From sequence record SRR9188677_85: a stretch of 64,000 nt of DNA; one strand, given 5' to 3'. The position numbers and the translations under genes are program-made. Below are positions 5,323 through 18,877 of the stretch, one piece after another. How positions within the stretch are numbered: position 1 is the stretch's first letter; every line of letters begins with the position of its first letter. The notes beneath the pieces are model-generated. The model had not been told where the DNA came from. It saw nothing but the letters and a program-made list of their open reading frames with translations, and searched no databases.

Positions 5323-7131
5323 ATGAAAAAAATCAAGTTCTGGCTACTACTTATGTGTCTGCAAGCAACGCAAGTGTTTGCCCAAGACCGTCCCAACATC
5401 CTTTGGATTGTCAGTGAAGACAACATTCCCATGCTGGGTGCTTACGGAGACAAATTCGCTACCACGCCAAATCTGGACGCTTTCGCGCAAAAAAGTATTT
5501 TGTATAAAAATGCATTTTCGACCGCACCAGTTTGTGCACCTTCTCGCAATACACTCATCACCGGTATGTACCCGCCGTCCAATGGAACCGAGCATATGCG
5601 GAGCATTTATCCCGTGCCGGATTATGTAAAATTCCTGCCAAAATATCTTCGTGAAGCTGGATACTACACAACCAACAATGCCAAAAAGGATTACAATACG
5701 ACAGATCAATTAGACGCCTGGGACGAATCTTCCACCAAGGCAACGTGTAAAAACAGGAAACCGGGTCAGCCGTTTTTTGCTGTTTTTAACTTGAATGTAA
5801 GTCATGAAAGCTCTTTGTTTGAGCCAGTTGCAAAGCTAAAACATGATCCTGAAAAAGTGCCGTTGCCACCTTATCATCCTGCAACACCGGAAATGAAACA
5901 TGATTGGGCACAGTATTACGACAAGATCGAGGACATGGACGGTCAGTTTGGCCAACTGTTGAAAGAACTGAACGAAGCAGGTTTAGCTGAAAATACCATC
6001 ATTTTTTATTACGGGGACAACGGTGGTGTTCTCGCAAGAAGTAAAAGATATATGTATGAATCGGGTCTGCACGTACCTCTGATCATTCATTTACCAAAAA
6101 AATATGAAGACCTGGCTTCGGTAAAACAAGGAAGTCAGACGGATCGGCTGGTAACATTTCTGGATTTTGCTCCCACTATTTTAAGCCTGGTTGGAATAAA
6201 AATCCCGGACTACATGCAGGGAGAAGCGTTTTTGGGCAAACAACAAAAACCTGAGCATGAGTATGCATACGGTTTTCGGGGAAGAATGGATGAGCGAATT
6301 GACATGTCCAGATCGGTTCGTGATAAGAGATTCAGGTATATCCGCAATTATCTTCCTCACAAAATTTACGGTCAGTATCTGGAATATCTCTGGAAAGCGC
6401 CGTCTGTACAGTCGTGGCTGGATGAATACAAAGCGGGAAAACTGAATGCTGTTCAATCAAAATTCTGGCAGGAAAAACCGGCAGAGGAATTGTTTGATGT
6501 ACTCGCCGATCCACATAATGTGAAGAGCCTTGTTGACGATCCTAAATATGCCAGCGATCTGAAAAGGCTAAGAAAAGCGAATGAAGACTGGATTCTCAAA
6601 TCAGTAGATGTTGGCTTTATACCCGAAGCAATTTTGTCTGATATCGCCGTGACAACACCGTTACGCGATTATTCTAAAAGTGGAAAGTACAATCTTAAAC
6701 TTGTGTTGGAAACTGCCGATCAGGCGTCTTCGCGCAATGCTGCCTATACCGATAAATTGATTGCAAAACTTGCAAACCAGGATCCGACAGTGCGTTATTG
6801 GGCTGCAACCGGATTGCTGATTCTAAAAGCAAAATCTGGCAAGAAAACATTGATTAAAGCAACGACAGACTCAGAAGCGGCGGTTCGTATTGCTGCATCG
6901 GAAGCGCTGTATCAAATCGGCGAAAAGAAATTGGCAATAAAGACGTTGACCGATGAATTAAAAGGTCATAATCTGACAGCCAGAGTTCAGGCGCTTAATG
7001 CACTTAGTAACATCGGAGCCGACTCCTCGCCTGCCCTGGAAAACGCAAAACTATTGATCAAGGAAACGCCGGGTATGTTCGATTACGATTCCAGAGCTGC
7101 AAAGGACTTTGTAACAAGGTTTGGAAATTGA
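5323..7131 (+). CDS. Sulfatase (S1, Cys-type) with C-terminal HEAT-like repeats
   Basis: SED, CAPSRNTLITG, GDNG, RMDER; tail with DPTVRYWAATGL, DSEAAVRIAASEAL, ARVQALNAL helical repeats. Confidence 0.92.
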   Translation: MKKIKFWLLLMCLQATQVFAQDRPNILWIVSEDNIPMLGAYGDKFATTPNLDAFAQKSILYKNAFSTAPVCAPSRNTLITGMYPPSNGTEHMRSIYPVPDYVKFLPKYLREAGYYTTNNAKKDYNTTDQLDAWDESSTKATCKNRKPGQPFFAVFNLNVSHESSLFEPVAKLKHDPEKVPLPPYHPATPEMKHDWAQYYDKIEDMDGQFGQLLKELNEAGLAENTIIFYYGDNGGVLARSKRYMYESGLHVPLIIHLPKKYEDLASVKQGSQTDRLVTFLDFAPTILSLVGIKIPDYMQGEAFLGKQQKPEHEYAYGFRGRMDERIDMSRSVRDKRFRYIRNYLPHKIYGQYLEYLWKAPSVQSWLDEYKAGKLNAVQSKFWQEKPAEELFDVLADPHNVKSLVDDPKYASDLKRLRKANEDWILKSVDVGFIPEAILSDIAVTTPLRDYSKSGKYNLKLVLETADQASSRNAAYTDKLIAKLANQDPTVRYWAATGLLILKAKSGKKTLIKATTDSEAAVRIAASEALYQIGEKKLAIKTLTDELKGHNLTARVQALNALSNIGADSSPALENAKLLIKETPGMFDYDSRAAKDFVTRFGN

Positions 7132-7191: not shown

Positions 7192-7208
7192 TCTACAAAA
7201 TTTGTAGA
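7192..7208. promoter_or_regulatory. Palindromic operator candidate TCTAC-N7-GTAGA
   Basis: TCTACAAA-A-TTTGTAGA perfect inverted repeat 22 nt before ATG 7231; related copies at 11148, 13004, 56830. Confidence 0.6.
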
Positions 7209-7230
7209 AGTAACTAGTAAATGTATCGTG

Positions 7231-10951: not shown

Positions 10952-11140
10952 AATAGAATCTTTTAAAGGGTTATCAATTTTAGTTGCTCACAAAATCGAC
11001 TGCTGCGCCAAATTAGGCTTTTAATAGTTGTAATAACTTCCAAAATCCTTCAATGTGTTGGTATGTGGTTTAAATTCCAAAATACCAACTTAAAATTTGT
11101 TGGATAATAGTGGCTTTTGGGATAACAGAAATTAATTAAG

Positions 11141-11166
11141 TACTTTGCTTACTAGTTTTGTAGACT
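11141..11166 (+). promoter_or_regulatory. Putative -7 promoter box (TACTTTG) abutting operator CTTAC-N7-GTAGA
   Basis: TACTTTG-CTTAC-TAGTTTT-GTAGAC about 90 nt upstream of sulfatase 11258; same layout as 12997. Confidence 0.6.
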
Positions 11167-11257
11167 AAGTAAATCGGTTTCGCACCAGCCGTTTGCCTCG
11201 AATATCAGAGCGGATTTTCTTGTCCGTTCCTTCAATTTATCATTCTCAATTTAAAAG

Positions 11258-12793
11258 ATGTTAAGAAAGTATTTATCCCCATTATTCGCGTCACTGATGA
11301 TTATATTGGTTTCGCTGGTTACTTTTTCTTTTAAAAAATCAAGAGAGACTAAATCCAGAACCGACACCGGGCGTCCGAATATCGTTTACATTCTGGCAGA
11401 CGACATGGGCTATGGGGACATCTCTTATCTAAACAAAGACTCTCAAATTCCCACTCCAAATCTGGACCAACTTGGTAAGGACGGACTGGTTTTCACAGAT
11501 GCGCATTCCGGTTCTGCTGTTTGCTCACCAACAAGATATGGCATTTTAACTGGTCGCTATGCTTTTCGTTCACGATTGAAAAAAGGTGTCCTTGGCGGTT
11601 ATTCACCGATGTTAATTGAACCGGATCGATTTACGGTAGCGGATTTACTTAAAAATGCGGGTTACCAAACAGGCGTTGTCGGCAAGTGGCATCTTGGACT
11701 GGACTGGAAACTTATCGACAATTCTAAACCTACTGACTCTGTTAAATATGACGACTGGACGAATACCGATAATCTTGATATCGAAAAAGGTGTCACAAAG
11801 GGGCCGAATGACCTTGGTTTTGATTACAGTTACGTAATCCCGTCTTCCCTTGATATTGCCCCTTACATCTATCTGGAAAATGGCAAACCCACTGATAAAA
11901 ACATCGTTGACATTAAAGGGAATAAGGAGCCAAGAGGCGTTTTCTGGCGCGATGGAAAGGGTTCGAAAACTTTTGAAATCGAAAAAACACTGGATGTCTT
12001 TGCCCAAAAGGCGAAGGATTTCATGGTCGGCGCTTCCAAAGAAAAAGGTAAACCGTTTTTTCTGTATTTGCCACTGAACAGTCCGCATACTCCCTGGCTG
12101 CCGTCTGAAAGTTTCAAAGGAAAGTCAAAAGCAGGCACATACGGAGATTTTGTTGCTCATACGGATGCAGCGGTAGGACGCGTTTTGCATACGCTGGATA
12201 GTCTTGGACTTTCAGAAAATACGCTGGTCATTTTTACGTCGGACAATGGTGCAGATTGGAAACCGGGCGACAAACAGCTTTATCCGGCTCATCAGGCCAA
12301 TTATATTTTCAGGGGTGAGAAGTCAGATATTTGGGAAGGCGGGCATCATATTCCTTTCATTGCGAGATGGAAAGGCGTCATAAAAAGCGGAGGAAAAACG
12401 GATCAAACGATTTGCCTGACAGACCTCATGGCGACAATCGCTTCTTTGACTAGACAAAAACTTCCTGCGGAAGTCGGACCGGATAGTTTCGATATTTCAC
12501 GGTTATTCAAAAATCCTTACCAAACAAAGCCAGTCAGAGCAAGCACAATTCACCATTCTATCGAAGGAATGTTTTCCATCCGTAAGGGAAAGTGGAAGTT
12601 TATTGACGGGAAGGGAAGCGGCGGCTGGTCGTCAAAAGGAGAGGCTTCTGATCCTGACGGCCAGTTGTATGATATGGATACCGACCGTATTGAATCGAAA
12701 AATGTTTATGCCGAAAACCCTGAAATCGTAAGAGAATTAAAAGCCATGCTGGAGAAGCAGAAAGGGCAGGGGTATTCGAGAGAAATTGAATAG
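11258..12793 (+). CDS. Arylsulfatase (S1, Cys-type)
   Basis: DDMGYGD, CSPTRYGILTG, GKWHLG, SPHTP, SDNG, WEGGH. Confidence 0.95.
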   Translation: MLRKYLSPLFASLMIILVSLVTFSFKKSRETKSRTDTGRPNIVYILADDMGYGDISYLNKDSQIPTPNLDQLGKDGLVFTDAHSGSAVCSPTRYGILTGRYAFRSRLKKGVLGGYSPMLIEPDRFTVADLLKNAGYQTGVVGKWHLGLDWKLIDNSKPTDSVKYDDWTNTDNLDIEKGVTKGPNDLGFDYSYVIPSSLDIAPYIYLENGKPTDKNIVDIKGNKEPRGVFWRDGKGSKTFEIEKTLDVFAQKAKDFMVGASKEKGKPFFLYLPLNSPHTPWLPSESFKGKSKAGTYGDFVAHTDAAVGRVLHTLDSLGLSENTLVIFTSDNGADWKPGDKQLYPAHQANYIFRGEKSDIWEGGHHIPFIARWKGVIKSGGKTDQTICLTDLMATIASLTRQKLPAEVGPDSFDISRLFKNPYQTKPVRASTIHHSIEGMFSIRKGKWKFIDGKGSGGWSSKGEASDPDGQLYDMDTDRIESKNVYAENPEIVRELKAMLEKQKGQGYSREIE

Positions 12794-12996
12794 TGACGCA
12801 GATCTACCTATTTGATTCGAAGAACGTTTAGTAAATTCAACTTTGAGCAAGACACAACCTTTCCTTAATTTTAATAACTATAAAATTAATCCAATTACAA
12901 GTTTGATCAATGCCGCAGGGGTCATCTAAACAAGCTATTTTTCCCAATACAGCCACTAAAAAGACAAAAAACTTGTTTCTGATATTTTTATAAACT

Positions 12997-13020
12997 TACT
13001 TTGTCTATCAATATAGTAGG
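12997..13020 (+). promoter_or_regulatory. Putative -7 promoter box (TACTTTG) abutting operator TCTAT-N7-GTAGG
   Basis: TACTTTG-TCTAT-CAATATA-GTAGG 55 nt upstream of the Cys leader ORF. Confidence 0.6.
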
Positions 13021-13075
13021 GTATTTCTTTTGTTAGCCACCAGCAAAGGAAATTTTGTTAGAATTCGTTTAAACG

Positions 13076-13168
13076 ATGAAAACGATGAATTTACATTCTT
13101 CGCAACAATATGTTGCATATCAGGTGGTTTCACTTCGCGGTTTCTTAAATCGGCGCTGTTGTTGCTGA
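13076..13168 (+). CDS. Cys-terminal leader peptide MKTMNLHSSQQYVAYQVVSLRGFLNRRCCC (30 aa; alternative start 13085), putative cysteine-sensing attenuator
   Basis: Hand translation; ends TGT TGT TGC TGA; lies between the promoter/operator and gene 13263; below ORF-track cutoff. Confidence 0.75.
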   Translation: MKTMNLHSSQQYVAYQVVSLRGFLNRRCCC

Positions 13169-13262
13169 GACATCTTTTCTGATCCACTATTTCTTATTTT
13201 TTTCTGAAAGACATTTTTTACAAATGCCGTTACAGATCACTCAAAATCATATTTAAAACATC

Positions 13263-14195
13263 ATGAAAAATTTCAAGTCATTACTATTAGCTACGGGGCT
13301 AAGCCTTACTTTCACTCCTGCTTTATTTGCACAAGAAACCTCTCAAAACAATGTGGTCGTTACAGGCGTTCGTTTTGCTTACCCGCTTGTGGAAAAATGG
13401 ATTAAAGATTATACTGCAGAATATCCAAAAGCTCAGGTTGCAATTGAAACCAGAACGGTTACAGATCCCGAAAAATACGACTTGCTTATTGAAGCATATG
13501 ATCAGGAGAAACTGGCAAAGGAAGGCCGCGAATTCATATCCATTGGCAGGTATGCATTATTGCCGGTTGCAAATGCGAAATCGGAATTTGCGAAACAATA
13601 CGGCGAAGATGGTTTGAACGAAAAAACCTACAAGCAAGTATTCTTTCATGACATTTATGCTGAAAAGGACAAGTCGATTACAACTCCATTCACCGTTTAC
13701 ACGCGTCTCCAGAAAGCCGGGGCACCTATCACTTTTGCAAAGTACTTCGGTTACGAGCAGCAGCAAATCAAAGGCAAAACAATTGCCGGTGCTGACGAGC
13801 ATTTGATCAAGGCCCTTTTAAAAGATGAAACAGGAATTACCTACACCGTTCCCGGACTTGCTTATGATTTGACAACCCGCAAACCAACAGAGGGAATTGC
13901 CGTGATTCCGGTTGATTTGGATGGCAACGGCAAAGTGTCGAAAGAGGAAAAACAAGTTGAAAATTTGGATTTGGTACTAGACAAACTCGAAGGTGAGAAA
14001 TTGAAAAACGTGCCGGTTGAGTACATCCATTTTTCCATTTCAAAAACCAGCACAAATCCCGAAGCGAAAAAATTCCTGCTCTGGGTAGCGTCTCACGGAG
14101 ATAAAGACCTGCGTCAGTTTGGCTATCTGAAGCCAGATGCAAAACGGGTTAAGTTGGAAAAAGAGAAACTCGAACGGTTCTCAGCGGTTAAATAA
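13263..14195 (+). CDS. Periplasmic substrate-binding protein, PstS/PBP-like; ligand possibly sulfate or a sulfate ester
   Basis: Signal peptide; VTGVRFAYPLVEKWI..Y resembles the PstS-like N-terminus; C-terminal A.KFL.WV...G; no Cys and a single Met. Confidence 0.75.
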   Translation: MKNFKSLLLATGLSLTFTPALFAQETSQNNVVVTGVRFAYPLVEKWIKDYTAEYPKAQVAIETRTVTDPEKYDLLIEAYDQEKLAKEGREFISIGRYALLPVANAKSEFAKQYGEDGLNEKTYKQVFFHDIYAEKDKSITTPFTVYTRLQKAGAPITFAKYFGYEQQQIKGKTIAGADEHLIKALLKDETGITYTVPGLAYDLTTRKPTEGIAVIPVDLDGNGKVSKEEKQVENLDLVLDKLEGEKLKNVPVEYIHFSISKTSTNPEAKKFLLWVASHGDKDLRQFGYLKPDAKRVKLEKEKLERFSAVK

Positions 14196-14202
14196 TCACA
14201 TA

Positions 14203-14258
14203 ACGTGAGTCTCATAAATGTGGCGGTCCTGTTTCGCCACCGTTTTTGAGACTCACGT
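14203..14258 (+). terminator. Hairpin after the binding-protein gene (terminator or mRNA stabiliser)
   Basis: ACGTGAGTCTCA...TGAGACTCACGT with inner GTGGCG/CGCCAC stem. Confidence 0.6.
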
Positions 14259-14421
14259 ATATAGTATATAGTTAACAAACTTTTTTGTTGCCTTTTTATG
14301 AGATTAGCGGTCGAATCTAGCAATCGTGCTGCCGATATTTGTATTTTTGAGTGCAAAATCAAGAGCTATTATGTTATTCCGACGCGCTTTACGCTATCCC
14401 TTCCGACTTTTTCAAATAAAA

Positions 14422-15807
14422 ATGAAAAATATCTTACTTATAACACTTCTGCTTGCCAACGTGTTATCGGCTTTCGCTCAAGCAAAATCCGCCAAACCCA
14501 ATGTGATCATTATCATGGCAGATGACCTCGATAGCAGACAATTGAGCTGTTATGGAGGCCAGAATCTAAAAACAACCTACATTGACGCACTGGCAAAAGA
14601 AGGTTTGAAGTTTAATCAGATTATTGCTTCCGAAGCCATGTGTGTACCAACCAGAGCCTCCCTTTTTACAGGTTTGTATCCGGTGAAACACGGTTCTTTC
14701 CAAAACCATAAGCCCGTTTATGACAATCTGAAAAGCGTAGGACATTACCTCGCAGACTTGGGTTATAAAGTTGGATTAACGGGAAAAGACCATGTCACTA
14801 AACCGAAAACAGTTTTTTCATTTGATATTATAAAGGGCTTTGAACCAAACTGTGTTTCGCCTACAGATGACTACCAACTGGATGATGTGAAAAAGTACAT
14901 CACGCAGGACGAGAAACCGTATTGCCTTTTTGTAATGAGTATCAATCCGCATGTTCCCTGGACTTCGGGTGATACAACGGAATTTGAAGCTTCAAAAGTT
15001 ATCTTGCCAAAAGACTATGTGGACACGGAAGTTACGAGGCGGCAGTATGTTAAATACCTTGCAGAAATCAGGCGGCTGGATGATCAGGTGGGAGACATTG
15101 TTAAGCTTTTAAAGGAAACTGGTCAGGATAAAAACACCATTGTCATTTTCCTTGGCGAGCAAGGAGCTCAGTTTCCGGGTGCAAAGTGGAATCTTTGGGA
15201 TGCCGGGCAAAAGAGTTCGATGATCGTGAAATGGCCGGGAAAGGTGACGCCTGAAACCGAAACGGAGGCAATCGTTCAATACGAAGATATTACCCCGACG
15301 CTGATTGATATTGCCGGTGGAAATCCAATCAATGGCCTGGACGGCAAAAGTTTTCTTCCAGTCATTTTAGGCAATAGCAAAACTGCACGAGAATACGCGT
15401 TTGGCATTCATAACAACATCCCGGAAGGCGACCCATATCCAATTCGCAGCATTCGCAACAACCGCTATAAATTGATTTTAAATCTAGCTGCTGATAAGCC
15501 CTACTACAACCGGTTTATGATGAACAGAGAACGTCCGGACAAAAACACAGTTTGGTTTTCCTGGACAGAAAAAGCGGCTAACAATGTTCAGGCAAAGCAA
15601 ATTACAGACCGTTTTGTGAATAGACCGCCGGTCGAATTCTACGATTTGCAAAAGGATCCAGGTGAATTTAAAAACCTCGCAACTGATCCTGCTTATCAAA
15701 AAGTAGTTGCAGAATATACCAAAAAGCTTCACAACTGGATGGAGGAGCAAGGGGACAAGGGAGCTGAGATTGATGTGGTTTATGCTAAGAAAGGGGAGGC
15801 GAAATGA
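14422..15807 (+). CDS. Sulfatase (S1, Cys-type; sulfamidase-like)
   Basis: Start re-called at MKNILL signal peptide; ADD, CVPTRASLFTG, GKDH, NPH, HNNIPEG. Confidence 0.92.
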   Translation: MKNILLITLLLANVLSAFAQAKSAKPNVIIIMADDLDSRQLSCYGGQNLKTTYIDALAKEGLKFNQIIASEAMCVPTRASLFTGLYPVKHGSFQNHKPVYDNLKSVGHYLADLGYKVGLTGKDHVTKPKTVFSFDIIKGFEPNCVSPTDDYQLDDVKKYITQDEKPYCLFVMSINPHVPWTSGDTTEFEASKVILPKDYVDTEVTRRQYVKYLAEIRRLDDQVGDIVKLLKETGQDKNTIVIFLGEQGAQFPGAKWNLWDAGQKSSMIVKWPGKVTPETETEAIVQYEDITPTLIDIAGGNPINGLDGKSFLPVILGNSKTAREYAFGIHNNIPEGDPYPIRSIRNNRYKLILNLAADKPYYNRFMMNRERPDKNTVWFSWTEKAANNVQAKQITDRFVNRPPVEFYDLQKDPGEFKNLATDPAYQKVVAEYTKKLHNWMEEQGDKGAEIDVVYAKKGEAK

Positions 15808-15963
15808 GCTTTTGAGTACAAAATAATTGCTCAATGTGACATAGACTTTGGCTTATTCAAAAAAAGTAATCACACAATTTCGACAGCTCACAATGACTCA
15901 AAAAATTGCATGACTCAAAGAAGATTATCTAAATAAATCACGAGAAAATAATCTTTAACCCAA

Positions 15964-17391
15964 ATGAAGTTTCAGCCAATTCCTCTTAAAACAATCATAG
16001 CCTTCGCGCTACTTATATCGCCATTCCTGACAATTGCTCAAAAGAAGGCAAAAACTCAGCCACCCAACATTGTCTTCATTGTTTCCGACGATCACAGTGC
16101 TCCGTTTTTGGGTTGCTATGGTTATCCGGATATCAAAACGCCTAATATCGACAAACTTGCGGCGGAAGGGATTTTGTATAAAAAGGCATATACGACATCA
16201 CCACAATGCGTTCTTTCTCGTGCAGGTTTGATGACGGGACGTAATACGTTGGATGTCAGATTGACACGGTTTTCGGCTCCGCTTGGCGCTGACATCGTTT
16301 CTTATCCTGAAATTTTAAGAAAGTCGGGTTATTATACAGGAATTCTGGGCCGGACTTTTCATTTGGACGGAACGAGGAGAGTGAAAGCTTCTGCCGATAT
16401 TTTTGACAAACACGGATTGGAAACGTTCAAAAACCGGGTCGATTATCTGAGAACGACCGGGAATGCGGACAGCATTTTCATGCAGTATAATGAGTTCATA
16501 GACCAGGTTCCAAAGGGCAAACCCTTTTTTGTTCAAGTAGGATACAGCGATCCGCACAGGATTTTTAATGCAAAAAACTCTGAACCGGATCCAACTAAAA
16601 TTTCGGTTCCTTCGCTGTGGCCGGATACTAAATTGCTAAGAGAAGATTTTGCCGCTTATCTGGGAGAAATTCAACGACTGGATAGCGATGTGGGAAAAGT
16701 GCTGGACGATCTCAAAAAGAGAGGTTTGGACAAAAATACATTGGTGGTTTTCATTGGCGATAATGGCGGAGCGTTGCTTCGTGGAAAAGGAACATTATAT
16801 AATCTGGGTTTGAATGTGCCGCTGATCATGCGCCATCCGGTTTTGATAAAACCTGGACAGGTTAGCGAGGCATTAATTACAGGAGAGGATATCGCACCAA
16901 CATTTCTGACAGTTGCGGGTGCCGCAGTTCCAAAAGAAATCACAGGAGTCAGTTTGACACCTTCATTTCAAGATGTCTCTTTCAATGGTCATGACGAAAT
17001 ATTTGCAGTACGCGGTGCACACGGACAGAATTTACCGCATAATACAGCCGACTTCGATTTGGGAAGAACTGTTTTCAGTAAAAAATACAAGTTGATATAC
17101 AATGCCATGTGGCAACTTCCTTATTATCCGGTCGATTTTGCCGCGCAACCTTTTTGGCTTGAGTTAACGCAGCGGCACATTGAAGGGAAGCTGGATCCAA
17201 AGTTCGATAAATTGCTGTTTGCGGACCGCAGGAAAATGTTTGAGCTGTATGACGAAGAAAAAGATCCGAACGAATTCAATAATCTGGCAGGTGATCCGAG
17301 TGTAAAGGATATAGAGTATCAGCTTAAATTAAAGCTGCAGGAATGGATGATTCTCAATCGCGATTATTTGCCGCTGCCAATTGCGCCTTAG
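15964..17391 (+). CDS. Sulfatase (S1) with atypical CVLSR motif
   Basis: SDDH, QCVLSRAGLMTG, DPHR, GDNG, RGKG. Confidence 0.92.
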   Translation: MKFQPIPLKTIIAFALLISPFLTIAQKKAKTQPPNIVFIVSDDHSAPFLGCYGYPDIKTPNIDKLAAEGILYKKAYTTSPQCVLSRAGLMTGRNTLDVRLTRFSAPLGADIVSYPEILRKSGYYTGILGRTFHLDGTRRVKASADIFDKHGLETFKNRVDYLRTTGNADSIFMQYNEFIDQVPKGKPFFVQVGYSDPHRIFNAKNSEPDPTKISVPSLWPDTKLLREDFAAYLGEIQRLDSDVGKVLDDLKKRGLDKNTLVVFIGDNGGALLRGKGTLYNLGLNVPLIMRHPVLIKPGQVSEALITGEDIAPTFLTVAGAAVPKEITGVSLTPSFQDVSFNGHDEIFAVRGAHGQNLPHNTADFDLGRTVFSKKYKLIYNAMWQLPYYPVDFAAQPFWLELTQRHIEGKLDPKFDKLLFADRRKMFELYDEEKDPNEFNNLAGDPSVKDIEYQLKLKLQEWMILNRDYLPLPIAP

Positions 17392-17482
17392 AATTCGGAC
17401 TCAATTATTTTTATCTGAGTTTCAATGGAAAAGTATATGAGCACAGGAAAGTTATTTTAAATATAGATTAATACTACATGAA

Positions 17483-18877
17483 ATGAATGTATTAAGACCC
17501 GTTGCCATAGCCGGATTGGTAGTTTTATTTTCCATTTTTTGCTTCTCGGCCTATGGGCAACAGAAGGAAAATCCGAAACGTCCAAACATCATTTTCCTGC
17601 TAACCGATGACCATCGCTGGGATGCGTTGGGCGTAATGGGTAACAGGATAATTCAAACGCCAAATCTCGATGCACTCGCAAAAAGAGGGATTTTATTTAA
17701 AAAAGCTTATTGCACCACCGCGATTTGCTGCGTTAGTCGGGCCAGTATTTTAAGTGGTCAATACGAATCAAGACACAAGATAAACGATTTCAATACCGAT
17801 TTTACACAACGTGCCCTTGATAAAACGTACCCTGCTCTGCTAAAAAAGGCAGGGTATAAGCTTGGTTTCATTGGTAAATTCGGTATTGATGTCAGCAACC
17901 AGCCCGATTCACTTTTTGATTACTGGGCGAGTGCAAAAGAAGGGCAACCGGTTTACGAACTCGTTAATAAAAGCGGTAACGTTATTCACCACACGGATAG
18001 CGTTGGTAAGGATATTACACAGTTTCTGAATCAATTCGCAGGGAAAGAACCATTTTGTTTGTCGGTCAGTTTCAAAGCGCCACATGAACTGGACGGTAAT
18101 CCGCCGACCTATCCGGTTCAGGAAAAGTATAAGGATTTATATAAAAACGTTGTGATTCCGGAACCTCTCACAGCCGATCCAAAGTACTGGAATAGCTTCC
18201 CCGATTTTTTCAGGACAGACAGAAACATTGCAAGAGACAGATGGAAACCGTTGCTTTCCACTTCGGAGCTCCGGCAGGAAACGACCAGGAATTATTACCG
18301 TTTGATAACAGGCGTCGATGAAGTCATTGGAAACCTTGTGGCACAATTGAAACAACTAAAAATCGACGACAATACAATCATCATTTTTATGGGTGACAAT
18401 GGGTTTTCGCTTGGCGAACATGGCTTGGAAGGAAAATGGTTCGGCTTTGAAGAATCGATCCGTGTTCCGTTGATTATTTCAGGCGCGCCTTTGCCCAAAG
18501 ATCTGCAAATGACCGAATCTGATCAGATCAGCCTAAATATCGATGTTGCTCCAACGATTCTTGCCTTGGCTGGTATCGCTATCCCAAATGAAATGCAAGG
18601 CAAAAATCTAATCGGCTTGTTGCAAAAGAAGGAACCTGCCAGAAAAGATTTTTTCTATGAACACACCTTCATGGGCAGTCCGGGTTTGCCAAAAGTGGAA
18701 GGCGTTGTTTCAACAAACTTCAAATACATGAAATTTATCGAGCATGATTATGAAGAGCTTTATGATACCGAAAAGGATCCGCACGAAACCACTAGTCTGG
18801 CAAAAAGTTCTGGTTCGAAGGTGAAGTTGAGTGAAATGAGGACGCGGTATGCGGAGTTGAAGGAATTGGTGAAGTAA
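17483..18877 (+). CDS. Sulfatase (S1) with atypical CCVSR motif
   Basis: TDDH, ICCVSRASILSG, GKFG, KAPH, GDNG..LGEHGL.GKW. Confidence 0.92.
   Translation: MNVLRPVAIAGLVVLFSIFCFSAYGQQKENPKRPNIIFLLTDDHRWDALGVMGNRIIQTPNLDALAKRGILFKKAYCTTAICCVSRASILSGQYESRHKINDFNTDFTQRALDKTYPALLKKAGYKLGFIGKFGIDVSNQPDSLFDYWASAKEGQPVYELVNKSGNVIHHTDSVGKDITQFLNQFAGKEPFCLSVSFKAPHELDGNPPTYPVQEKYKDLYKNVVIPEPLTADPKYWNSFPDFFRTDRNIARDRWKPLLSTSELRQETTRNYYRLITGVDEVIGNLVAQLKQLKIDDNTIIIFMGDNGFSLGEHGLEGKWFGFEESIRVPLIISGAPLPKDLQMTESDQISLNIDVAPTILALAGIAIPNEMQGKNLIGLLQKKEPARKDFFYEHTFMGSPGLPKVEGVVSTNFKYMKFIEHDYEELYDTEKDPHETTSLAKSSGSKVKLSEMRTRYAELKELVK

Follow-up and report, generated by a model that had tools for sequence, protein, structure and literature searches.

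The 64,000-nt stretch of DNA analysed here (the window, from record SRR9188677_85) carries on its plus strand, at 13263-14195, a gene for a secreted, PstS-like substrate-binding protein of 310 aa. The protein gives a weak match to PF12849 (PBP_like_2) below the cut-off and has no NCBIfam match and no PDB sequence match; its 704 homologues are labelled in their sources as phosphate-ABC-type binding proteins, and the closest named ones, from Dyadobacter, are 74-83% identical to it. One sulfatase gene lies upstream of the binding-protein gene (11258-12793) and three lie downstream (14326-15807, 15964-17391, and 17483-18877), and in relatives the binding-protein gene is followed by sulfatase genes or by a SusC/SusD-like outer-membrane pair. 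Directly past the stop codon of the binding-protein gene, a terminator-like hairpin with a T run (14220-14250, plus strand; inner stem 14220-14240) is nested in a longer stem (14203-14258), and the predicted hairpin is likely a terminator or processing site between the binding-protein gene and the sulfatase genes. Because of this hairpin, the three downstream sulfatase genes (14326-18877) need not share the regulated transcript. The earlier note is to be corrected on this point, as the sulfatase genes downstream are perhaps transcribed separately.

Ahead of the binding-protein gene lies a plus-strand leader ORF (13076-13168) of 30 codons and a stop, which begins with an ATG at 13076, ends with a TGA at 13166-13168, and is translated as MKTMNLHSSQQYVAYQVVSLRGFLNRRCCC before the stop. 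A second in-frame ATG (13085) is the start common to all Dyadobacter copies, and four loci (L002, L005, L028, and L030) have the equivalent of this second ATG and lack the first. Exactly as the earlier note had it, the only Cys codons of the 30-codon ORF are its last three, TGT TGT TGC at 13157-13165, which together with the TGA make up the candidate sensor (13157-13168, plus strand). Taken alone, the ORF in the window is suggestive and not strongly beyond chance: runs of at least three TGY codons number 11 by chance on the two strands of the window, and one of the 497 ATG-started ORFs of 15-60 codons in the window has CCC within its last seven residues. The ORF is judged real because of the comparison across genomes and not because of the window statistics, and on that comparison the Cys-ending leader ORF is genuine, which confirms the earlier observation.

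For the comparison, one genome per species was scanned with the binding-protein gene, and the best 80 of 119 loci were used. Loci of at least 52% identity (L001-L060 and L068; 61 loci) and the window form a core set of 62 places, which consists of the window with 36 Dyadobacter loci and of 25 non-Dyadobacter loci from Ohtaekwangia, Chryseolinea, Parachryseolinea, Chryseosolibacter, Dawidia, Xanthocytophaga, Pseudochryseolinea, and MAGs. A uORF with Cys residues clustered at its C-terminus stands before the PstS-like gene at 59 of the 62 places (from the best 80 of 119 loci), with 35/37 in the Dyadobacter group and 24/25 at the non-Dyadobacter orthologous loci. Within one order, Cytophagales, many soil bacteria thus carry the uORF ahead of a gene for sulfur scavenging. 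Among 19 more distant loci (49-56% identity), a small ORF with adjacent Cys codons near its end is present in 4 and absent in 15. The exceptions within the core set are L019, L034, and L058. At L058, a different gene lies immediately upstream of the binding-protein gene and there is no Cys uORF. At L034 (5829-5946), the uORF is lost and the promoter and hairpin are kept, and at L019 (5947-6010), a deletion removes the Cys run and the spacer, so that codons 1-16 of the leader continue in frame into the binding-protein gene.

The uORF peptides have 25-71 residues, and their bodies diverge and are not alignable between genera. In the 58 uORFs analysed, 2-7 of the last ten codons encode Cys (median 4), and the share of Cys is 40% there and 1.5% in the remainder of the peptides. 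In 43 of these uORFs no sense codon follows the last Cys, and in all 58 the last Cys lies no more than three codons from the stop. TGT and TGC are used 165 and 69 times, respectively, in 26 distinct third-base T/C patterns; the length of the run varies by whole codons, and variation within the run occurs only at third positions. When the 450 nt upstream of the gene were searched in the 80 sources (best of 119), 55 of 56 runs of at least three TGY were found inside an ATG-started ORF, 15-51 codons past the ATG and 0-8 codons ahead of the stop. The density of such runs is 1.56 per kb in these upstream regions and 0.095 per kb elsewhere in the 80 loci, which is a 16-fold enrichment. Because the Cys codons are synonymously variable, in frame, and placed at the stop, and the peptide bodies are divergent, the pattern carries the signature of a codon-run sensor. 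The short ORF with terminal Cys codons and synonymous variation that the earlier note proposed to look for in orthologous leaders is thus present.

We aligned 35 Dyadobacter leaders and ran RNAalifold on 22 of them. The best-conserved stretch of the alignment is the block 12996-13019, which had been noted earlier as a promoter/operator. It begins with the -7-like TTACTTTG box (12996-13003) of a putative promoter (12973-13003, plus strand), in which the box follows a TTG (12973-12975) and a 20-nt spacer; both elements are conserved among the 35 leaders, and we take them to resemble the Bacteroidota -33/-7 consensus TTTG/TAnnTTTG. The near-invariant block TCTATCAATATAGTAG follows (13004-13019, plus strand; at least 90% conserved columns in the 35 leaders), lies at the expected transcript start, and is a possible operator. 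This block has a single exact copy in the window, and the operator-like block is not clearly repeated there, with 10 matches at up to three mismatches against 4.3 +/- 2.2 expected. A similar sequence, CTATTGACTTAGTAG, is found about 250-330 nt 5' of the binding-protein homologue at four distant loci (L063, L066, L067, and L072), where it lies upstream, not downstream, of a TATATTTG box. Because the position of the block relative to the box differs at the distant loci, CTATTGACTTAGTAG and the block 13004-13019 suggest a DNA site for a shared regulator. In the window, a perfect palindrome, TCTACAAAATTTGTAGA (7192-7208), just 5' of a GH44/esterase gene at 7228, is loosely like the block 13004-13019.

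A distance of 73 nt separates the end of the promoter-like boxes from the first ATG, and this interval holds a covarying hairpin downstream of the predicted transcription start. This 5' hairpin (13024-13052, plus strand; stem 13024-13032/13044-13052, loop TTAGCCACCAG) has 8 predicted pairs, 7 of them with compensatory changes in the 22 Dyadobacter leaders. The loop core CCACC is invariant in the 35 leaders, and SAM-I aptamers at orthologous loci carry the same motif in their P3 loop. The first 27 nt of the Dyadobacter uORF are conserved at the nucleotide level, synonymous sites included. RNAalifold predicts a hairpin H1 (13083-13102, plus strand; CGATGAAT/ATTCTTCG) that encloses the ATG at 13085; H1 gives no covariation evidence because it is invariant. 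A hairpin that hides the start codon was rejected as a general feature of the uORFs, with a pairing of 0.59 against 0.57 in shuffles and 43 of 77 leaders above their own control. The adjacent hairpin H2 (13102-13116, plus strand; GCAACA-ATA-TGTTGC) has a folding energy of -6.3 kcal/mol and a z of -5.75 in the window, and z is below -1 in 18 of 33 Dyadobacter copies with differing stem sequences. The 5' arm of H2 is also complementary to the Cys run, and the minimum-free-energy fold of the window leader pairs GCAACAA with the run; as a whole, this leader folds no better than shuffles (z -0.30). Further into the uORF, GGTGG (13123-13127, plus strand) is invariant in Dyadobacter though its codons encode different residues. 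It is complementary to the loop CCACC, and the possible pairing of the two would have an invariant 5-bp core with no covariation in the 35 leaders; of five SAM-I aptamers whose P3 loop contains CCACC, three lack a downstream GGTGG. The spacer contains the conserved motif CCGTTACAGATCA (13227-13239, plus strand; shared GTTACA) and is otherwise clade-specific. The nucleotide-level constraint on the 5' hairpin, H1, H2, GGTGG, and the GTTACA motif shows that RNA features matter in addition to the Cys codons. No assembly of these conserved leader elements into a covariation-supported switch was obtained.

A SAM-I riboswitch (RF00162) is found directly 5' of the uORF at 6 of 9 non-Dyadobacter orthologous loci tested, with scores of 69-78 bits (gathering score 44.4). 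The Dyadobacter loci tested (L001 and L016) have no match at the gathering score, the leader in the window matches no Rfam family and gives no SAM-I match even at E<=10, and no family is found directly upstream of the distant loci L063, L066, L067, and L072. Because this independent signal directly precedes the uORF in sister genera, the uORF is linked to sulfur. A pattern of four Cys codons and a stop, searched for in five related genomes, gives 26 matches against 4 in a reversed control, and the matches revealed additional leaders with a poly-Cys uORF behind an aptamer. The RF00162 search gave 21 matches in the five related genomes and 106 matches in 49 of 61 Cytophagales genomes, from which 29 new loci were taken, one per genome; the resulting set has 50 SAM-I leaders out of the 120 matches listed (7 common to both searches). 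When a uORF is defined uniformly by an ATG or GTG at -10 to +15 nt from the aptamer 3' end, a length of 10-60 codons, and at least three Cys in the last ten, 21 of the 50 leaders have one; across 200 shuffles, the mean number of such leaders is 0.055 and the highest is 1. By the same definition, 0 of 29 SAM-I leaders in a phylum-wide sample have a uORF, and none of these has a TGY run. Because of this, the combination of aptamer and poly-Cys uORF looks confined to Cytophagales or a part thereof, among the genomes searched.

The genes that follow the combined leaders encode Cys/Met PLP enzymes (O-acetylhomoserine sulfhydrylase type, MetY-like), sulfatases, PhyH-type dioxygenases, sulfite reductase, amino-acid permeases, the binding protein, and two proteins without a family, and in Chryseolinea several loci per genome carry a Cys-run leader. 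The uORFs start -7 to +12 nt from the aptamer end, that is, from the 3' strand of its closing helix, and because of this adjacency SAM binding would be expected to gate uORF translation. We give roughly even odds to the proposal that the SAM-I riboswitch of Cytophagales commonly has a poly-Cys uORF as its expression platform, with SAM gating translation of the uORF, the charging of Cys-tRNA gating the ribosome at its end, and the leader in the window being a derived form that has lost the aptamer. Such a leader would be a two-input sulfur sensor, for SAM and cysteine, that works without a Shine-Dalgarno sequence or an intrinsic terminator, perhaps via Rho. The Dyadobacter leader in the window would then have kept the uORF, together with a hairpin with a CCACCAG loop that corresponds to the P3 loop in the aptamers of orthologous leaders.

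The spacer between the leader ORF and the binding-protein gene (13169-13262, plus strand) is a candidate Rho-loading region. Its length of 94 nt and its 19 C and 7 G agree exactly with the earlier hand count, and it is weakly structured, with a minimum free energy of -4.4 kcal/mol. The absence of a strong intrinsic terminator is also borne out: one weak site was found, at 13150-13168 on the Cys codons, with 0.7 +/- 0.8 expected by chance. This absence is meaningful because the window does have a terminator-like hairpin after the binding-protein gene. In the 50 SAM-I leaders, a terminator (a hairpin of <= -8 kcal/mol and a U run) occurs in 1 of 21 leaders of the uORF type, where it lies inside the uORF, and in 8 of 29 leaders without a uORF. 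No mutually exclusive antiterminator/terminator pair with a U tract was found in the uORF-type leaders, and no conserved helix was found 3' of the stop in Dyadobacter (RNAalifold and single folds) or in the MetY-type leaders. C exceeds G in 33/34 Dyadobacter spacers, 23/24 other orthologous spacers, and 9/10 other uORF leaders, with the reservation that related sequences are not independent and counts such as 33/34 overstate the number of evolutionary events; the corresponding share is 51% in 146 control upstream regions. None of 29 control regions in the window has a C/G ratio of at least 2.5. With means of 0.26 for C and 0.16 for G, the skew is modest; it peaks within the 15 nt that follow the stop (ratio 1.5) and is broken by G-rich hairpins in many Dyadobacter spacers. 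All five related genomes searched encode the Rho domain PF07497.

These comparisons support the earlier reading of the leader as a cysteine attenuator, as far as sequence can. Very probably, the leader ORF is a regulatory, Cys-sensing leader peptide that serves as a gauge of charged tRNA-Cys; Rho as the effector step is put forward more tentatively, at somewhat less than even odds. The explanation as a whole, in which a Cys-tRNA-sensing leader governs a sulfur-scavenging gene and a tnaC-like, Rho-dependent control of read-through is the proposed output, has in our estimate a probability of about 60%. The leader would report the supply of charged tRNA-Cys and so set the expression of the binding-protein gene, perhaps also of the sulfatase genes behind it. 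Transcription would start near 13010, and ribosomes would translate the leader. When cysteine is plentiful, ribosomes would reach the stop and leave, the bare C-rich, G-poor RNA around and after the stop would be open to Rho, and Rho would stop transcription ahead of the binding-protein gene or in its early part. If Cys-tRNA runs short, a ribosome would stall on the three terminal Cys codons, cover the stop and the first bases of the spacer, and hinder Rho loading as in the E. coli tna operon, which would permit read-through. We infer the stalling, the role of Rho, and, from physiology, the direction of this response. The tnaC-like model of the earlier note is favoured because there is no terminator, C exceeds G, Rho is encoded, and the Cys run lies at the stop. 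The masking of a Rho site of 60-80 nt is not self-evident, because a stalled ribosome covers only the first few bases of the spacer.

The Rho model does not account for the 5' hairpin with its CCACC loop, GGTGG, H1, H2, and the GTTACA motif, and these elements point to a possible structural switch. Cys-tRNA would still be sensed, but the output would be a change in RNA structure that leads to non-canonical termination or RNA processing, with the Cys run pairing with the GCAACA arm of H2, the CCACC loop pairing with GGTGG, and the hairpins just past the stop as its candidate segments. Nucleotide conservation beyond coding needs speaks for such a switch, as do the seven compensatory pairs of the 5' hairpin, the invariance of GGTGG across different codons, the maintenance of H2 with changed stems in 18/33 copies, the predicted pairing of GCAACAA with the Cys run in the window, and two near-isoenergetic pairings past the stop in the fermentans clade. 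However, no helix past the stop is conserved across clades, the hairpins there have no U tract, L021 has no post-stop hairpin at all, and the z of the window leader (-0.30) is that of an unremarkable fold, so that we consider this mode of output unlikely. Less probable still is translational attenuation, in which the stalled ribosome would melt a duplex that hides the start region of the binding-protein gene. Bacteroidota depend on unstructured start regions, which counts in favour of such control, but the start of the binding-protein gene lies 67-180 nt from the leader stop in Dyadobacter and is predicted to be mostly unpaired. In a thermodynamic model of 34 leaders, the predicted accessibility of the start does not change when a ribosome footprint masks the Cys run or the stop (means 0.60, 0.60, and 0.60), which gives no support here for the RBS-sequestering duplex of mycobacteria, where translational attenuation has been shown for polycysteine sORFs (10.1101/834739).

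Two further explanations dispense with sensing altogether, and we regard both as highly improbable. If the ORF encoded a functional Cys-rich micropeptide, for example a metal-binding or modified one, conservation of both the ORF and its C-terminal Cys cluster would be expected, and both are conserved. The body of the peptide, however, is not conserved between genera, its 5' part in Dyadobacter is conserved at synonymous sites too, and the same type of ORF stands before unrelated sulfur genes right after SAM aptamers; no peptide-maturation genes were found near the leader ORF. The other possibility is that the UGY repeat is an untranslated RNA motif, such as a protein-binding site, or that the ORF is a chance feature, and indeed TGTTGTTGC is of low complexity, with 11 such runs in the window by chance. 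This explanation is countered by the in-frame position of 55/56 runs behind an ATG and near a stop, by the restriction of variation to third positions, and by the 16-fold enrichment.

In the trp, his, thr, and leu attenuators, codons for a single amino acid are repeated close to the end of the leader ORF, and the genes behind it are tied to the supply of that amino acid. The present leader likewise has its codon run near the end of a short leader ORF, and it differs from them in having no terminator/antiterminator pair with a U tract. In the tna operon, TnaC stalls through its nascent peptide and free tryptophan at the stop codon. Like tnaC, the present leader has a short ORF and a long, C-rich spacer that lacks an intrinsic terminator, and a stall right at the end of the ORF and the masking of a Rho site at the stop are proposed for it, whereas the cause of stalling expected here is a shortage of charged tRNA at repeated codons, with the role of Rho being a proposal. 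In Salmonella mgtA, a riboswitch-type leader is combined with the sensing uORF mgtL, and a SAM-I riboswitch with a second input, uncharged initiator tRNA, has reportedly been described (PMC7270179). An interplay of riboswitch and uORF is also described for the B12 riboswitches of M. tuberculosis (Kipkorir et al., 2024, PMC11260477). The mgtA/mgtL and B12-uORF leaders resemble the leaders studied here in joining an aptamer and a translated uORF that modulates the downstream gene, and they differ in their inputs, which here would be SAM and Cys, and in that the copy in the window has no aptamer.

Cys leader peptides themselves have precedents. In Actinobacteria, they were predicted before cys genes without terminator hairpins, and Rho was proposed, with E. 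coli tnaC cited as an analogy (Seliverstov et al., 2005, PMC1262725). In mycobacteria, leaderless polycysteine sORFs are described as cysteine-responsive translational attenuators that form a 'Cys ribulon' (Canestrari et al., bioRxiv 10.1101/834739). Both groups share with the present case a short ORF with a Cys run near the stop, a place before sulfur or cysteine genes, and several loci per genome. The present leader differs from the mycobacterial sORFs in its phylum and in not being leaderless, with a predicted 5' UTR of about 65 nt that contains a conserved hairpin. Relative to both groups, the targets here include sulfatases and a binding protein with a TonB-type transporter, and most relatives have a SAM-I aptamer. 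The uORFC-8-2 of Rhodobacterales, before cysS, has tandem Cys codons and is interpreted as a ribosome-mediated attenuator that responds to tRNA-Cys charging (Brewer et al., 2021, PMC8632094). It is alike in its tandem Cys codons and its reading of tRNA-Cys charging, and it differs in having two mid-peptide Cys codons inside a stem, an intrinsic terminator with a U run, and a tRNA synthetase gene under its control; the leaders here have 2-7 C-terminal Cys, no terminator, and scavenging and assimilation genes as targets. The literature that we searched, which was covered in part and whose supplementary catalogues may hold cases, contains no Cys leader peptide in Bacteroidota and no SAM riboswitch with a Cys-rich uORF. 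As a correction to the earlier note, Cys leaders have been described before in other groups, Actinobacteria and Rhodobacterales. In the literature searched, the Cys leader peptide described here is the first in Bacteroidota; it is usually fused to a SAM riboswitch, which the copy in the window lacks.

Sulfate esters are a major pool of soil sulfur. To our knowledge, it has not been established how Bacteroidota switch on their sulfatases and sulfate-ester uptake systems, and the Cys leader is a concrete candidate for a cis-regulator of this switch. The wider result is more interesting than the case in the window: a poly-Cys leader ORF comes directly after about four in ten of the Cytophagales SAM-I aptamers sampled. 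Because these aptamers adjoin a Cys-rich uORF instead of a terminator, the comparison suggests that Cytophagales SAM-I aptamers may act through the translation of a leader peptide. Bacteroidota largely lack Shine-Dalgarno-led initiation, and the finding bears on how riboswitches act in such a phylum. It also extends the 'ribulon' idea of ribosome-coordinated regulons from Actinobacteria to Bacteroidota.

Some further features were observed around these leaders. The leader of the upstream sulfatase gene in the window (11140-11200, before the gene at 11258) is laid out similarly, with a TACTTTG box, then a CTA...TAG block, and a loop ending in GCACCAG on a small hairpin, and it has no uORF. SAM-I aptamers before sulfatase genes at L123, L125, and L127 also have CCACC in P3, and CACCAG-type hairpin loops may be a shared mark of sulfatase-type leaders. 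At the non-Dyadobacter orthologous loci L036-L060, a long hairpin is shared about 60-160 nt past the uORF stop (for example, L045:5880-5960), with 15 predicted pairs, 5 of them compensatory. It matches no Rfam family, is followed by no consistent U tract, and has an invariant TTGGTGG in its apical loop and GCCRCCAA at its 3' base. By complementarity, these two motifs could pair with the CCACCAG P3 loop or with one another, and a kissing-loop or pseudoknot element is possible on the predicted fold. In the fermentans clade (L009, L016, L068, and others), an ATG at position 5956 lies 45 nt upstream of, and in frame with, the start of the binding-protein gene; it is not conserved elsewhere, and the signal peptide starts at the downstream ATG. 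In the MetY-type leader at L144, four Cys codons and a stop recur in frame 9 nt past the first stop. At L153 and L154, where SAM-I leaders precede amino-acid permease genes, the poly-Cys uORFs seemingly start with GTG, 9 nt past a short aptamer of 91-93 nt.
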